From Patescibacteria group bacterium (lineage in GTDB: Bacteria; Patescibacteriota; CPR2; UBA1875; JAJYID01): a DNA stretch of 24,924 bases. A program made the position numbers and the translations under genes. This document shows positions 73-24,924 of the stretch, one piece after another (within the stretch, counting starts at the first letter, position 1; the number at the start of each line of letters is the position of its first letter). Location of the stretch: positions 1 to 24,924 of the forward strand of contig JBBTZO010000044.1 in assembly GCA_038061315.1 (NCBI GenBank). The letters run 5' to 3'. The notes beneath the pieces were generated by a model. The model searched no databases, was not told where the DNA came from, and saw nothing but the letters and a program-made list of their open reading frames with translations.

Positions 73-101
73 TTGACTTGGGGATAAAAAGGGGCTATAA
101 T
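73..101 (+). promoter_or_regulatory. sigma70-type promoter P1
   Basis: TTGACT (73-78), 17-nt spacer, TATAAT (96-101); predicted start about 108. Confidence 0.8.
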
Positions 102-107
102 CTATTG

Positions 108-620
108 GCTTTAAAAATTTCATAAAGTTTTTAAATCGTGGGTTGCTGGAAGGATTAAACGCCTCTTTTCCAAATATTCCAATCAGATTCTGTGCGGAGA
201 CAAAATATGAGCTCATCAAACCAGGTGAGCAAGTTGAGGTAAAGACAGCGCCAACCGGCAACCCCACCAATTCACAGTACCTTTTTAAAAGCGTTGGTTG
301 GACGTTTTTAGTCTGACCGCGGCTCCAGACAACATTGCTCTAGCAGGGTCTGGAGTAGTGTCTTTGAAGCTCTTTATGGGTTTCAGAGGCTGGCGGTAGA
401 ACGGGCGGCCCCTCTGTAAGTTTAGCCTCCCCCATGGGGGGCCGCCCAAGCTTTTGACTTGAGAGAATTCTCAAGTAACAAGCGCTAAGGAGGTACAACC
501 TCTTTAACGGTTGTTGGGTAGTTGATACCCCTCAACCTCCCCAGTGCGGCGGCCCCGGGAAGAGGTCGCCGCACAAAATCTAAGCCTTCAAGGTTTCACA
601 AGAAGCCAAGAGGGCTTTTT
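108..620 (+). ncRNA. candidate large structured non-coding RNA, family not recognised
   Basis: Bounded by P1 and a hairpin plus T-run. About ten helices, e.g. 138-149/255-267, 287-294/302-309, 316-320/393-397, 322-330/348-356, 362-372/378-388, 403-412/438-447, 457-464/469-476, 544-554/564-574. No convincing SD-led ORF. Confidence 0.6.
582..620 (+). terminator. probable intrinsic terminator of unit 1
   Basis: AAGCCTTC (582-589) or AAGCC (603-607) pairs with GAGGGCTT/GGCTT (610-617), followed by a T-run to 620. Confidence 0.5.
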
Positions 621-1126: not shown

Positions 1127-1142
1127 AATTTATAAAAAACTA

Positions 1143-1172
1143 TTTACTAACATAAGGGCTTCTTTATATAAT
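1143..1172 (+). promoter_or_regulatory. sigma70-type promoter P3
   Basis: TTTACT (1143-1148), 18 nt, TATAAT (1167-1172); spacer motif shared with P2. Confidence 0.55.
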
Positions 1173-1270
1173 AAAACTATCAGGGCTAACCAACATATGG
1201 AGGTGATCTAAAGCACACCTGCACGTCCTTTGAAAAGTTAGCCGAAAAGAGGTATAGATAGGGAGGGTCA

Positions 1271-1721: not shown

Positions 1722-1750
1722 TTAACAAAAGAGTCTTTTGCTATTACAAT
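1722..1750 (+). promoter_or_regulatory. promoter of the PBP gene
   Basis: TTAACA (1722-1727), 17 nt, TACAAT (1745-1750); inverted repeat CAAAAG-AGT-CTTTTG at 1726-1740. Confidence 0.5.
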
Positions 1751-1771
1751 TATATCTAGCAATAATCTTTA

Positions 1772-3949
1772 ATGAAATTATTTGATATGATTGAGGGTGA
1801 ACACGAATCTCAAGACAAAAACCTAAAGCATCACAAACAAAAAAAAGCGAGCAGCAGCAAAAAGATCGCGAAACAGTGGTGGGTTGTTTTTAAGCATATT
1901 TTATCAAAAACCTTTGCGGTTATTGGTAGAACTCTTTTAATATTTTTTATCATACTATTTTTAACGGGTAGTTTTTTTACTATTGGAATCTATTTCAAAT
2001 ATGCGAATGATTTTAAAGGAGCTAAACCAAAAACGGGAGGTACCCAAGCTATCTTCTATGATAAAAACGGGGGGGTGATATATGAAGGTTTTGGAACCAG
2101 TGATCCCGACTACGTTTCTCTGGATCAAGTCCCTGATATTATAAAAAAGGCTACTCTTGCAGCCGAAGATAAGGGTTTTTATCACCATGGACCCGTAGAT
2201 GTGAAGGGTATTGCCAGAGCAGCACTTAGAAACTATCAGGCAAGCGATAGGGCAGGTGTAGCAAAACTATCCGGACTTTTCAGCGAAAGTGAATACTCAC
2301 AGGGTGGGTCAAGCATCACCCAACAGCTTGTAAAGAATAGATATCTTGCAGGCGAAAAAAGCTTTGAGAGAAAGCTAAAAGAGCTCGTTTACTCATACGA
2401 ACTGGAAAAGAAAATGAGTAAAGACCAGATACTTGAGCAATATCTAAATAATATTTATTATGGTGAACAATCGTTGGGAATAAAAAATGCCGCAAAAATA
2501 TATTTTGGCAAAGAACTAAAAGATTTGAGCCTGGCAGAAGCCACATATCTTGCTGGTCTTCCAGCAGCTCCCAGTAGATACTCACTCATCAGTGGTGACT
2601 ATGAAGCCGGTAAGAAAAGGCATGAGTATGTTCTGCAACAAATGATAGAAGAAAAATATATTACAGAGGAACAGGGAAGAGAGGCTGTTAACCAACCCCT
2701 AACACTAGGTAGTGAGCAAAAAGTAACTATTAAATATCCTTATTTTGTCCAGTATGTGAAGCAAGAGCTCATAAATATGTACGGTTCAGAACTTGTCGAG
2801 ACAGGGGGTCTAAAAGTTTACACAACGATTGATCCTGAAAAACAGGATTTAGCCGAAGCAAAAGCAAAAGAGTATGTAAATAAATTTAAGTATGCACGGG
2901 TAACAAATGCCTCTGTTGTCATTATGGATAACAAAACGAATAATGTTTTAGCAATGGTCGGCGGAGTCGATTGGGAAAAAAGCAAAGTAAATGTTGCAAC
3001 CTCAAAGAGACAACCCGGTTCATCATTTAAACCAATTGTATACTCCGCCGGATTCTTACAAGAATACTCACCGTTAACAAAACTTATAGATCAGCCAATA
3101 AACTTTGGCGGCATTCCTCCATATATACCCAGAAACTATAATGGTGGCTTTATGGGAAATATATCAGCAAGGAATGCTTTGGCAAACTCATTAAATATAC
3201 CAACCGTAGAAATGGGGAAGCTTGCCGGTATAGAAAATATTGTAAAGACTGCCGAAGCCATGGGTATAACAACCCTAGATAGAGACCCCGATGACTATGG
3301 GCTTTCTTTATCTTTAGGAAGTGGTGAAGTTAAACTACTCGACCTCGTTGAGGCCTATGCAACTCTTTCTGATGGCGGAAAACGTACAGTACCATCAGGA
3401 ATCGTAAAGATTTTAAACAACAGAGATGAAAGTATCTATAAAATAGAAAGACAGAAAAAAGAAGTTCTTGACCCCAGAGTTGCATATATGACTACAAGTA
3501 TTTTGTCCGACACAAAGGCTCGACAGAAAATTTTCGGATATGGGAATAAGCTTGAAATCAAAGGACATACCGTAGCGGCCAAAACAGGAACAACCGACAA
3601 CTATACTGACTCATGGACGGTTGGCTACAACCCTGATATCACAGTTGGTGTTTGGATGGGAAATAACGATAGAAGTAAGATGGGACAAATAAGTGGTATA
3701 GAGGGCGCTGCATATATATGGCATGATATACTTGAAGGAATTATTAAAAATCAACCGGATATTGCTTTTGAAAAACCAAAGGGTTTGAGCGAAGTTTGGG
3801 TCAATCCTTCAACATTTGCCAAAGCACCAAAAGAAGGAAGTCCTTATGTACTGGAGTACTTTTTACCGGGAAAAGAACCATCTACTAAGCCGGACTTTTC
3901 CTATCTAAACCAATTTAATAAGAAGGCAAGTGTACCAAAAAATCCCTAA
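1772..3949 (+). CDS. class A penicillin-binding protein (transglycosylase-transpeptidase, PBP1A family)
   Basis: N-terminal TM helix; transglycosylase motifs AEDKGFYHH, GGSSITQQLVKN, RKLKE; transpeptidase motifs SSFK, SLN, KTGT. Confidence 0.95.
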   Translation: MKLFDMIEGEHESQDKNLKHHKQKKASSSKKIAKQWWVVFKHILSKTFAVIGRTLLIFFIILFLTGSFFTIGIYFKYANDFKGAKPKTGGTQAIFYDKNGGVIYEGFGTSDPDYVSLDQVPDIIKKATLAAEDKGFYHHGPVDVKGIARAALRNYQASDRAGVAKLSGLFSESEYSQGGSSITQQLVKNRYLAGEKSFERKLKELVYSYELEKKMSKDQILEQYLNNIYYGEQSLGIKNAAKIYFGKELKDLSLAEATYLAGLPAAPSRYSLISGDYEAGKKRHEYVLQQMIEEKYITEEQGREAVNQPLTLGSEQKVTIKYPYFVQYVKQELINMYGSELVETGGLKVYTTIDPEKQDLAEAKAKEYVNKFKYARVTNASVVIMDNKTNNVLAMVGGVDWEKSKVNVATSKRQPGSSFKPIVYSAGFLQEYSPLTKLIDQPINFGGIPPYIPRNYNGGFMGNISARNALANSLNIPTVEMGKLAGIENIVKTAEAMGITTLDRDPDDYGLSLSLGSGEVKLLDLVEAYATLSDGGKRTVPSGIVKILNNRDESIYKIERQKKEVLDPRVAYMTTSILSDTKARQKIFGYGNKLEIKGHTVAAKTGTTDNYTDSWTVGYNPDITVGVWMGNNDRSKMGQISGIEGAAYIWHDILEGIIKNQPDIAFEKPKGLSEVWVNPSTFAKAPKEGSPYVLEYFLPGKEPSTKPDFSYLNQFNKKASVPKNP

Positions 3950-14183: not shown

Positions 14184-16937
14184 ATGATTTTTAAAAAAAT
14201 CTTCGGTAATCCGAATGAAAAAGAAATAAAGAAATTACGTCCAATCGTGGATAAAGTAAACTCGCTTGAAGAAAGTGTAGCCAAGTTAAGCGACGCCAAA
14301 ATAAAAACAAGGATTCAAGAAATTCGAGAAAAAATACAGAAAGATATAAAGATAGATTCCCGCCTGCACGGGAATGACAATGGTGGTGTAGACAAAAAAA
14401 CTGCAAATAAAAAGATTAATGAAATTCTTGAGCCTTATTTGGTAGAAGTATTCGCACTTGTAAGAGAAGTTTCAAAAAGAAAGTTAAAAATGCGCCACTT
14501 TGATGTACAGCTCATTGGCGGATATGTTCTCCACTCCGGTAAGATTTCTGAGATGAAAACCGGTGAAGGAAAGACTTTGGTTGCAACATTAGCAGCTACA
14601 CTAAATGCCTTAACTGGACTAGGGGTTCATGTTGTTACTGTAAACGACTATCTCTCAAAACGTGACGCAGGATGGATGGGTACTATCTATAATGGTCTCG
14701 GACTTAGCGTTGGTGTTATTATCCATGATGAAGCCTTTATTTATGACGAAAAGTTTGAAGACGAGAATGCTTTAGACGAAAAAACCAAGCACATGAAACC
14801 CATCACAAGAAAAGAAGCATACGCGTGCGATATCACCTATGGAACAAATAACGAGTTTGGTTTTGACTACCTAAGAGATAATATGGTCCAGTCCTTAGGA
14901 CAAATGGTTCAACGACCGCTAAACTTTGCCATCGTTGACGAGGTTGATTCTATTTTGATAGATGAGGCAAGGACTCCTTTGATAATATCCGCTCCGGCAG
15001 AAGAGTCTACGGGTAAATACTATCAGTTTGCAGAGATTGCAGAAAAACTAAAAAAAGACAAACACTATGTTATAGATGAAAAACAAAAAGCCGTCACACT
15101 AACTGATGACGGTATTGCTGAGATGGAGAGGGTCCTCGGTATGCAAAACGTTTACGAAGAGGGCGGTATCGAAACGGTCCATCATATAGAACAGTCACTA
15201 AAGGCCGTGGCGCTCTTCAAAAAGGATAAAGACTATGTAGTTAAAGAAGGAGAAGTGATAATCGTTGACGAGTTTACCGGGCGTCTAATGCTTGGGAGAA
15301 GATACTCTGAGGGTCTTCATCAGGCTATTGAAGCTAAAGAAGGCGTAGAAATAAAAAGAGAGTCCCTAACCCTTGCTACTATTTCCTTCCAAAACTATTT
15401 TAGACTCTATACAAAACTTTGCGGTATGACTGGTACGGCGGAGACAGAAGCAGAAGAGTTTCATAAGATTTACAGTCTTTCTGTGATGATAATTCCAACC
15501 AATATGCCAAATGTGAGAAACGATCTAAATGATGTTATCTACAAGAACGAATTAGCGAAGTTTAGGGCCATTGTAGAAGATGTGAAAAAAAGAAATGAAA
15601 AGGGTCAGCCTGTTCTCATTGGCACTGTTTCTATTGAAAGAAATGAACTTCTTTCAAATATGTTGAAAAGGGGCGGTGTAAAACACAACGTACTAAACGC
15701 AAAGTTTCATGAAAAAGAAGCTTTAATAATATCTCAGGCAGGACAAAAGAGCGCCGTCACAGTCGCAACCAACATGGCCGGTCGTGGTACTGATATAGTT
15801 CTTGGTGAAGGCGTCACAAAACTTGGCGGGCTTCACGTCATAGGCAGTGAAAGACATGAAGCAAGACGCATAGATAACCAGCTACGTGGACGTTGTGGAC
15901 GTCAAGGCGACCCAGGGTCAACGCAGTTCTATGTATCCTTAGAGGACGACCTGATGAGAATATTTGGTTCTGATAGGATCGGTACTGTCATGCAAAAACT
16001 AGGATTGCCGGATGACCAGCCTATCCAGCACGGCATGATTTCAAAGTCACTAGAGTCGGCTCAAAGGAAAGTAGAGGGTAACAACTTTGACGTCAGAAAA
16101 CACCTTGTTGAGTATGATGATGTGATGAACAAACAGCGCGAATATGTTTATGGAAAAAGAAGAATGATACTTGGAGATAGTAATGTTAAAGACGAAATAC
16201 TGGAGTACTTAAGCGAGTCAGCAGAGTTTCTAGTTAATGAAAATGTGAACGCTCAAACAGAAGACTTTGACTATGAAAACTTTATAAAGAACTTTGATGC
16301 CATAGTTCCAACGGACAACCAGTTTAAAAATCAAATCAAAAAAGAAGACCCAAGAGAGCTTACAAAAACTGCTGATAAATTTCTTGCTAGTACTTATGAA
16401 GCGAAAGAGAAAGAGTTCACTCCTAAGATTATGCGGGAGATTGAAAGATCTATTTACCTGCACATTATTGACACACTCTGGATAGATCATCTTGATGCTA
16501 TAGATAACTTGCGTGAAGGCATAGGACTTCGCGCTTATGGACAAACCGAACCACTAGTGGAGTATAAAAAAGAATCATATAAGATGTTTCAGCAGTTTTT
16601 GGGTGGCATACGCTCAGAGATAGTAAATATGATATTTAAAGTCAGAATTCAGCCAAATATTGCGGAGGCTCCAATGCCAGAAGGAGACGAAGTCCCGACC
16701 GCAAGCGTCGAGAAACAAGAGTCCAGACTAACAAAGGCGGCGGAAAAAGCAAAAGAGATTAGTCCTACAGAGTCTCCGAAGCCCCGAGACTTTGGGGATA
16801 ATGCATCCATAATGAGGCAAGAGTCAAAAAACCAATCGAAAAAGAATAAAACCGTTCTAAAAAAGAATAAAGTTGGCCGAAACGACCCCTGTCCATGCGG
16901 CTCCGGCAAAAAATATAAAAAATGCTGTGGGAAGTAA
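14184..16937 (+). CDS. secA: preprotein translocase subunit SecA
   Basis: MKTGEGKT, DEVDSILIDEARTPL, NQLRGRCGRQGDPG, C-terminal SEC-C motif GRNDPCPCGSGKKYKKCC. Confidence 0.98.
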   Translation: MIFKKIFGNPNEKEIKKLRPIVDKVNSLEESVAKLSDAKIKTRIQEIREKIQKDIKIDSRLHGNDNGGVDKKTANKKINEILEPYLVEVFALVREVSKRKLKMRHFDVQLIGGYVLHSGKISEMKTGEGKTLVATLAATLNALTGLGVHVVTVNDYLSKRDAGWMGTIYNGLGLSVGVIIHDEAFIYDEKFEDENALDEKTKHMKPITRKEAYACDITYGTNNEFGFDYLRDNMVQSLGQMVQRPLNFAIVDEVDSILIDEARTPLIISAPAEESTGKYYQFAEIAEKLKKDKHYVIDEKQKAVTLTDDGIAEMERVLGMQNVYEEGGIETVHHIEQSLKAVALFKKDKDYVVKEGEVIIVDEFTGRLMLGRRYSEGLHQAIEAKEGVEIKRESLTLATISFQNYFRLYTKLCGMTGTAETEAEEFHKIYSLSVMIIPTNMPNVRNDLNDVIYKNELAKFRAIVEDVKKRNEKGQPVLIGTVSIERNELLSNMLKRGGVKHNVLNAKFHEKEALIISQAGQKSAVTVATNMAGRGTDIVLGEGVTKLGGLHVIGSERHEARRIDNQLRGRCGRQGDPGSTQFYVSLEDDLMRIFGSDRIGTVMQKLGLPDDQPIQHGMISKSLESAQRKVEGNNFDVRKHLVEYDDVMNKQREYVYGKRRMILGDSNVKDEILEYLSESAEFLVNENVNAQTEDFDYENFIKNFDAIVPTDNQFKNQIKKEDPRELTKTADKFLASTYEAKEKEFTPKIMREIERSIYLHIIDTLWIDHLDAIDNLREGIGLRAYGQTEPLVEYKKESYKMFQQFLGGIRSEIVNMIFKVRIQPNIAEAPMPEGDEVPTASVEKQESRLTKAAEKAKEISPTESPKPRDFGDNASIMRQESKNQSKKNKTVLKKNKVGRNDPCPCGSGKKYKKCCGK
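14354..14379. repeat. half of a GTCATTC-type palindromic element inside the secA coding sequence
   Basis: AGATTCCCGCCTGCACGGGAATGACA, 22/26 identical to intergenic 7572-7597; translated as DSRLHGND. Confidence 0.85.
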
Positions 16938-24842: not shown

Positions 24843-24924
24843 AAAGCAATCCCCCAACAACTCCAACTGTTGTCCAGGATGAGAAACCTCTTGGACACTG
24901 ATTGGTCAAAAAAGGTACACTGGA

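Follow-up and report, generated by a model that had tools for sequence, protein, structure and literature searches.

The 24,924-nt stretch analysed here (the window) is the entire contig C44 of G000, a Patescibacteria genome of 0.61 Mb in 71 contigs that is 79% complete, has a G+C content of 39% and comes from groundwater (Hainich well H41, 0.1 µm fraction); public runs from three further studies contain only 100% identical pieces of the sequence and thus contribute no variation. Near the left end of the window, at 108-620 of the + strand, lies what is very probably a gene in its own right, whose product is a strongly folded non-coding RNA of ~510 nt, running from a promoter at 73-101 to a hairpin and U-run near 620, and its fixed downstream neighbour is the gene of PBP1A, a class A penicillin-binding protein. 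G-numbers stand for genomes, L-numbers for other contigs or loci and C-numbers for contigs of G000, and the RNA was compared across nine loci (C44, G001, G004, G007, L033, L113, L114, L116 and L117), seven of which hold a long form and two (G004 and G007) a short one. The parts of the gene, with the source of each assignment (MFE stands for the minimum free energy fold) in brackets, are these:

73-101, + strand: promoter P1 of the RNA, TTGACT-17-TATAAT (promoter scan, 11 of 12 positions match)
108-137, + strand: 5' leader with a small AU hairpin, the leader being the homologue of UUUGNUCGCUCUAAA in relatives (MFE, L113 alignment)
138-267, + strand: Domain I, in which the long-range helix P1 (138-149/255-267) closes a variable apical region (nine separate folds, alignment A3)
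287-309, + strand: hairpin M2 (MFE)
323-355, + strand: hairpin M3, with apical UGC-UCYA-GCA plus a 3' GG, i.e., the motif GCUCYAGCAGG (motif, covariation)
360-390, + strand: hairpin M4, then a conserved CUGGC (MFE)
403-447, + strand: hairpin M5, a GC stem of 12-13 bp whose loop includes a U-run and the C-rich motif UUUAGCCUCCCCC (alignment A4, MFE)
458-475, + strand: perfect palindromic hairpin (MFE)
487-505, + strand: hairpin A of the 3' module (487-574), with Shine-Dalgarno (SD)-like AAGGAGGU paired to ACCUCUUU
509-537, + strand: hairpin B of the 3' module (MFE)
538-543, + strand: single-stranded UCCCCA of the 3' module, between hairpins B and C
544-574, + strand: hairpin C of the 3' module (MFE)
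582-625, + strand: terminator-like two-tier hairpin (582-617) plus the U-run UUUUUACAUUUU (local fold of -19.2 kcal/mol)

Much of what the first-pass annotation, made from the sequence alone, had described at this place stands. Its near-consensus promoter is the one at 73-101, and the RNA is indeed G+C-richer than its surroundings, with 48.7% for 108-620, compared with 33.6% and 20.2% on its two sides and 38% over the coding remainder of the contig; bases 340-1765 are also the genome's longest stretch devoid of any stop-free frame of at least 80 codons. For the + strand of 108-620, the MFE amounts to -213.8 kcal/mol (100 dinucleotide shuffles put z at -8.96), for the - strand to -181.4 kcal/mol (z = -4.21, likewise against dinucleotide shuffles), and, as the + strand is ahead in both energy and z, the structure is better understood as that of a + strand RNA, with 64% of the bases paired and G-U making up 17 of the 163 pairs. 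The five further GC-rich hairpins (403-447, 458-475, 487-505, 509-537 and 544-574) are all present in the MFE, and the terminator postulated for the RNA can be seen in the two-tier hairpin and the U-run that follows it, even if the hairpin at 582-617 is not among the listings of a simple terminator scan of the window. The proposed three-way junction survives in part: the hairpins 323-355 and 360-390 and the closing helix 312-320/392-399 are found in the MFE, but the closing helix is unsupported by the homologues and has no counterpart in L113. A pseudoknot between CCAACC (251-256) and GGUUGG (296-301) was not retained, the complements seen by eye in L113, G001 and L114 being 5-6 nt long, located at non-homologous places and not distinguishable from chance.

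The RNA had also been called an orphan, a label that does not fit a locus with eight syntenic homologues upstream of the PBP1A gene, which come from two genera of the same family (G001; G004 and G007) and from five metagenome contigs (L033, L113, L114, L116 and L117, the last four obtained via PBP1A homologues). BLASTN-type searches with 100-630 or 1-1770 gave no match in 60 relatives, phages or plasmids, a search of the genome itself for paralogues (blastn, nhmmer) found none, and the transcribed DNA is barely alignable even between homologues, for some pairs of which BLASTN gives only short patches. In G001, which belongs to the same genus and has a PBP1A that is 85% identical, the interval of 1.27 kb from the ROK kinase to PBP1A begins with TTGACTTGGGGATAAAAA, 18 bases identical to window 73-90, after which come a G+C-rich, hairpin-dense unit of ~440 nt, a second promoter-led unit and the conserved PBP1A promoter; the five metagenome contigs are arranged as in G001, and the RNA of genus g3 (G004 and G007) is shorter, at ~250 nt. 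All nine loci retain the -35 box TTGAC[T/A] and the -10 box TATA[A/C]T, 8 of 9 the 17-nt spacer and most of them the extended promoter TTGACTTGGGGATAAAA-N-TATAMT. A hairpin with a U-run stands at the end of every homologue. Because the promoter is present throughout, because each copy ends in this way, and because both PBP1A and the unit in front of it (unit 3, described below) have promoters of their own, the RNA is regarded as a separate gene.

Pair-preserving compensatory changes between these relatives support three of the predicted helices, namely 138-149/255-267 (the long-range stem that had been drawn from the window sequence and that is also part of the MFE), 323-355 and 403-447. As MAFFT misaligned the 5' strands of the long forms (alignment A1) and the outer stem of M3 (A4), P1 and this outer stem were counted from each sequence's own MFE. 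For the core of helix P1 (140-150/254-265), with nine sequences each folded alone, 97 of 99 cells hold standard pairs and both sides have changed at 8 of 11 positions, the 3' partner being situated ~60-125 nt downstream. The short forms of Domain I (alignment A3; five sequences, 23 pairs) are paired at 93.8%, compared with 35-47% when the partners are slid, and 12 of the 23 pairs have changed on both sides, compared with 1-4 in the slid versions and with 0 of 500 shuffles reaching as high a value. In M3, covariation is seen at 7 of the 8 outer-stem positions (five sequences, four of which pair there in their global MFE) and the inner stem is conserved, the motif GCUCYAGCAGG being found in C44, L113, G001, L114 and L033. 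In M5 (alignment A4; five sequences, 13 pairs), 8 pairs have changed on both sides and 95% of the cells are paired, as opposed to 41-59% with slid partners. The loop of M5 retains its U-run and C-rich word in six homologues while the stem changes completely, and it is C-rich in all six homologues examined (UUUUCCCC, UUCCCC, UUUUUCCUC, UUAGUCUCC and UUAGCUCC).

Domain I is the sole part kept in all nine copies, short forms included, and its internal loops are purine-rich (GAAGUAA opposite AAGAAGUUAAA), a motif conserved in G001, G004 and G007, partly in L033, and not kept in C44, L113 or L117. The small AU hairpin of the leader is present only in C44 and L113. At the position of M2, the sequence of C44 differs from the UUGAG...CUCAA hairpin, mostly with a C-rich loop, that is seen in L113, G001, L114, L033 and L116, and M4 has a counterpart with an enlarged loop in L113, the closest homologue, which shares the common architecture through M5 and then terminates. 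The palindromic hairpin 458-475 is absent from L113 and the other homologues and thus seen in this genome only. The order of the 3' module (GGGAGG..CCUCC hairpin, GGUUG..CAACC hairpin, UCCCC, long GC stem) can be followed by eye in G001 and L033 and in part in L114 and L116, its long GC stem being of wholly different sequence in each genome, and the module is missing from L113, G004 and G007. The conserved part comprises the 5'-terminal ~100-170 nt and two hairpins, the remainder being a variable array of hairpins.

That the region might instead be a protein-coding gene or a pseudogene, for which the 71 stop-free, ATG-less codons of frame 101-313 could be cited, is scarcely credible: L113, the closest homologue, breaks this frame by indels of 10, 23 and 15 nt, Pfam and PHROGs give no match on any of the six frames of the RNA region, tblastx between homologues yields short matches on both strands, none of them consistent, no SD-led open reading frame (ORF) is common to the homologues, and the longest stop-free stretch of the short forms is at most 47 codons. 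The open frame 101-316, conservation of which would have spoken for a protein, is not conserved among the homologues, and the base pairs are. Neither does the RNA belong to a known family. With Rfam 15 (4227 models; membership is a cmscan score at or above the gathering score), there are 0 matches in the window and only tRNAs in ten homologous loci; lowering the bar to E<=10 over the RNA brings up noise only (CcsR1 at 18.7, P35 at 18.9 and BTH_s39 at 13.4 bits), and E<=5 over the short forms brings up nothing. With no Rfam match, no conserved frame and pairs kept by compensatory changes, the initial description as a large non-coding RNA of no known class that has a promoter and a terminator to itself is upheld.

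The candidates among housekeeping and mobile RNAs were considered one by one. RNase P RNA (RF00010), expected as a single gene per genome, is located on contig C62 (208.6 bits) and has no match in the window; transfer-messenger RNA (tmRNA, RF00023) is on contig C35 (136.5 bits), and ARAGORN finds no tRNA or tmRNA in the window. The signal recognition particle (SRP) RNA models (RF00169, RF01854) give no match even at E<=10 in G000, G001 and G004, no GNRA-capped domain IV with AGCA-type loops is seen by eye in the conserved hairpins (whose loops vary: CAAG, CAGG, UGAA, GAUU; UCYA), and no Ffh/FtsY was detected. 6S RNA (RF00013) has no model match in the genome; it is a ~180-nt rod with a large central bubble mimicking an open promoter, for which the Domain I rod of ~95-130 nt, with 23 modelled pairs and up to ~31 by eye if an outer extension is included, appears too short. 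Group I and II introns and the insertion sequence (IS) guide RNAs (omega RNA, bridge RNA), which would be accompanied by an RT, TnpB, IscB or IS110 recombinase gene on the same element, give no matches at E<=10, the neighbouring IS was read as a DDE (rve-type) element, and the RNA locus exists in IS-free relatives; Y RNA and riboswitches are without a model match, and the architecture does not suit them. A known RNA of the housekeeping or mobile kind (SRP, 6S, RNase P, tmRNA, group I/II intron or IS-guide RNA) that has diverged beyond recognition is therefore a largely refuted and very improbable explanation, although the SRP and 6S roles are formally vacant, their models matching nothing in the genome or its near-complete relatives: RNase P RNA and tmRNA are accounted for elsewhere, there is no detected Ffh/FtsY gene product to bind an SRP RNA, the features of SRP domain IV are lacking, the rod is short for 6S, intron and IS-guide matches are missing, and the sequence evolves too fast.

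The apparent vacancy of the SRP pathway is a side result. SRP RNA models find nothing in G000, G001, G003, G004, G005 and G007, the Ffh M domain and SRP54 GTPase domain nothing in G000, G001 and G004, a direct motif scan of G000 no SRP-type GTPase, and TIGR00959 (ffh) is positive in the named control genomes and in 0 of 28 genomes of the order; the 0 of 41 obtained for ffh across the phylum may be due to masked data or to the limited reach of the tool and not to biology, some members of the phylum being known to have ffh. SecA is present at 14184-16937 of the window.

The RNA represents a new, hitherto uncatalogued RNA family, of a general kind that is otherwise familiar. OLE, ROOL, GOLLD and raiA motif RNAs are likewise stand-alone, non-coding, several hundred nucleotides long, equipped with their own promoter and terminator, rich in covariation-supported helices and of unknown function, but the window RNA matches none of their models, is far narrower in distribution (five metagenome contigs and, within one family, two genera) and is conserved over only about a third of its length, what remains being a changeable array of hairpins and not one ornate fold. 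A covariance model (R1), built from five Domain I sequences of the short form, detects a single copy in each of G001, G004 and G007 and recovers only its training set, plus L116 weakly; it has no hits in the order's other five families (19 of the 28 genomes searched) or in ~150 other sampled genomes of the phylum. As C44, L113 and L114, with their long apical inserts, are not aligned by it, R1 under-reports the family, and the distribution it gives is a lower bound, given that it misses C44 itself. At the PBP1A locus, the RNA is absent from relatives with 65-70% PBP1A identity, namely L034/35 and genus g2 (G003, G006 and G008). Judging from the sequences compared, the family is narrow, lineage-restricted and fast-evolving, its 3' hairpins differing by gain, loss and change of size even between close relatives.

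The left border of the gene is formed by a mobile element, which has to be described before the possibility that the RNA has little or no function can be weighed:

1-54, no strand: terminal inverted repeat ('type A' end) of an IS481/IS3-like IS, and an assembly break (repeated contig ends)

Both borders of the contig are IS ends at which the assembly breaks: the initial 53-55 nt of C44 recur identically at the starts of C14 and C11 and at the end of C31, and its last 55 nt (24870-24924) match six other contig ends. Three types of IS end share TGTCCAAGAKGT, with 4 copies of A, 7 of B and 5 of C, and besides C44, such ends are found on C11, C13, C14, C15, C18, C31, C43, C47, C57, C58, C60, C61 and C70. 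The type C and B ends are the inverted repeats of an intact IS of ~1.09 kb in a related metagenome-assembled genome (L018:76-1168), whose single transposase-like ORF of 355 residues was read by eye, with no family scan run, as helix-turn-helix plus DDE (rve-type), IS481/IS3-like; the type A end matches the inverted repeat of this IS at 17 of 27 positions and is the homologous repeat of a second element of this kind, joined in L115 to the start of a transposase-like ORF. An integron-like cassette reading of the repeated contig ends was accordingly rejected, the ends being IS inverted repeats of which L018 has an intact copy, and the SD-like GAAAGGAG at 7-14, earlier suspected to be part of a gene to the left, belongs to the IS end as well.

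A transcribed spacer, or a foreign GC-richer remnant collecting stable palindromic hairpins, in which descent or weak selection would have preserved no more than the promoter and a few helices, would fit a place next to such an IS end, and on C14 and C11 the same end is followed by GC-richer ORFan units equipped with promoters and terminators; the extreme turnover, with hairpins such as 458-475 unique to this genome, and the lack of the RNA in one genus of the family and in a relative of 65% identity point in this direction as well. We nevertheless consider it improbable that the RNA is of this sort. The IS-free G001, L033 and L113 hold the promoter and the RNA between the ROK kinase and PBP1A, and since the IS-free relatives have the ROK kinase where the window has the IS, the IS arrived after the RNA locus, which predates it; moreover, pairing that three helices retain through changes on both sides, and a loop motif that persists on an altered stem, are not what neutral decay predicts.

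Some further observations concern the IS ends themselves. In four of the five assembled copies examined, the type A end is exactly 18 nt upstream of a TTGAC(T/A) box, with spacers of unrelated sequence (C44, 55-78; C14, 55-78; C11, 54-77; and L115, 141-163 regions); in the fifth (C31), the TTGAC box is 7 nt away, and a sixth copy, a loose end in a public run, has the -35-like AGACAA at 18 nt, which altogether suggests that the type A IS directs its insertion to a set distance ahead of strong promoters. The G+C-richer (45-52%) stretches C14:55-2400 and C11:54-1450, the latter abutting the 3' end of a tRNA gene, consist of small promoter-ORFan-terminator units (178 + 178 and 105 + 222 amino acids, respectively) with paralogous terminators, between which the stems have diverged through compensatory changes; their ORFan cargo has no Pfam or PHROGs match, and they look like remnants of an integrated element.

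To the right of the RNA, two further units and then the PBP1A gene with its own promoter follow on the same strand:

699-1123, + strand: unit 2, comprising a promoter-like site, an SD-led 50-codon ORF (792-944), a structured 3' part and a terminator (1101-1123)
1143-1668, + strand: unit 3, comprising promoter P3, a structured RNA, an SD-led small ORF (1271-1390) and a terminator (1649-1668)
1722-3949, + strand: PBP1A promoter (1722-1750) and the class A penicillin-binding protein gene (1772-3949; Transgly and Transpeptidase domains)

Unit 2, whose acidic ORF has a strong SD (AGGAGGT) and is called as a gene in public assemblies, is seen in this genome only and, having no counterpart in any homologous locus, is best taken as a recent insertion between two conserved RNA units. 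Unit 3, conserved in six relatives, has counterparts in G001, L033 (3313-3900), L114, L115, L117 and L119, with a locus at L029 on the reverse strand. Its promoter is well kept (AAAAACTNTTGACTAACATAAG..TATAAT), P3 being 76% identical to G001 over 63 nt (window 1130-1191), as is its 5' part (CAGG..CCUGCGCAC..GGAGGUGAU), and its SD-led ORFs of 25-48 codons encode MGKYTF.. in the window and MGVYKIP.. in L115, those of L117 and L119 specifying peptides that contain DDD-TT; unit 3 could be the mRNA of a micro-protein, or else an RNA with a dual function. The PBP1A promoter region (1690-1771; TTTTGGYATTTTACTTATTAACAAAA..TTTTGCYATTACAAT; 79% identity over 96 nt) is remarkably well preserved throughout the family, and no recognisable SD can be seen by eye ahead of the ATG. 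The closest named relative of the protein is labelled 'candidate division WS5 bacterium', others being labelled Patescibacteria.

The constancy of this neighbour raises the question of whether the RNA acts in cis and, by read-through from promoter P1, tunes the expression of PBP1A, be it as a transcriptional insulator, as a long leader or through processive antitermination. In every locus found, the RNA is upstream of PBP1A on the same strand, and the neighbour on its other side varies (ROK kinase, histidine kinase or IS), just as such a role would have it, but one to three terminator-like hairpins and, mostly, a second unit with its own promoter separate the two, no alternative-pairing expression platform accompanies the conserved domain, and PBP1A has its own conserved promoter, which is kept even in the relatives devoid of the RNA (L034/35 and genus g2). 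A cis role is, in our view, quite improbable.

The explanation that we favour, which as a whole, its mechanism included, is put forward tentatively, is that of an independent gene whose product acts on other transcripts. That the RNA works in trans, as a regulatory or sponge RNA, by way of exposed UCCC/CCUCC loops is the mechanism that we rate likeliest, even if in itself it is less probable than not. In such a scheme, the 5' domain (leader, helix P1 and purine-rich internal loops) would provide stability or a handle for a protein, the hairpin loops and linkers would present C-rich words able to pair with the G-rich SD regions of mRNAs, and this pairing would dampen translation in the manner of the RsaE/RoxS and CcsR RNAs. 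Exposed C-rich loop words are a hallmark of these anti-SD-type small RNAs (RsaE/RoxS in Firmicutes; CcsR1-4, RF02791, in Rhodobacter). In the window RNA, the words UCCC/CCUCC are located in loops and linkers at 427-434 and 536-543, and no long form is without an unpaired UCCCC or CUCCC. An independent promoter and a Rho-independent terminator are further features in common; the window RNA, however, is five times longer, has a conserved 5' domain that those RNAs lack, and carries the C-rich loop words in all seven long forms and in neither short form. CcsR1, the CCUCCUCCC-loop RNA, is the sole Rfam near-miss within the RNA; it appears below threshold at 380-453, and its alignment over the hairpin 403-447 scores only 18.7 bits against a cut-off of 65.3, so the window RNA is not a member of that family, although it may work in a similar way.

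Several points weigh against this explanation. The short forms of G004 and G007 retain Domain I and have no unpaired C-rich word, and it follows that the conserved core function cannot rest on the C-rich loops. Unpaired UCCC words are only ~1.5 times as frequent as expected (our own estimate from loop composition), and stable RNAs usually have G-poor loops anyway; a 9-nt match seen by eye between the M5 loop and the ribosome-binding site of the unit 2 ORF is of a sort findable for almost any strong SD. The covariation is based on just 5-9 related sequences, and no RNA run is listed among the public runs holding this sequence.

The universal retention of Domain I, with its purine-rich internal loops, makes the main rival a protein-binding scaffold or decoy, in which the 5' domain, with its long GC helix and these loops, would be a docking site, and the RNA would titrate or organise a protein as 6S, Y RNA or CsrB do. 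The AGUA/GAA words of the GAAGUAA/AAGAAGUUAAA internal loops are reminiscent of what we take to be a loop-E/sarcin-ricin type motif, G001, G004 and G007 keep the loop sequences (L033 does so partly), and a variable count of peripheral hairpins is typical of sponge RNAs. With the motif not kept in C44, L113 and L117, no candidate partner gene linked to the locus (the upstream neighbour varies) and no match to a 6S, Y RNA or CsrB model, this alternative is unlikely, though a cis role, a near-neutral spacer and a diverged housekeeping RNA are less likely still. The CsrB/RsmZ sponges also have modular hairpins of variable number and stems with a recurring short loop word; in the window RNA, however, this word is C-rich and not GGA, and there is no PrrB_RsmZ match. 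Returning to the favoured trans-acting regulator, one could go further and imagine units 1 (the RNA) and 3 as a lineage-specific RNA control module for cell-wall synthesis, in which the 5' domain would sense a ligand or protein (e.g., a peptidoglycan precursor) and the changeable C-rich hairpins of this trans-acting RNA would set the translation of envelope genes. We regard this as a long shot; if true, it would amount to a new class of large sensor RNA in bacteria with very few protein regulators.

Candidate Phyla Radiation (CPR)/Patescibacteria bacteria make up a large share of bacterial diversity and have tiny genomes with few recognisable regulators, and their non-coding RNAs are almost undescribed in the full-text literature searched. 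The locus described here adds an alignable new RNA family with covariation-backed helices, a conserved promoter and PBP1A as a fixed neighbour. This RNA evolves so fast that BLASTN misses its homologues even within the same genus, which synteny alone could find, and this may be why RNAs of this sort look like orphans. Structured RNAs confined to single lineages may well belong to the normal inventory of the reduced genomes of Patescibacteria.

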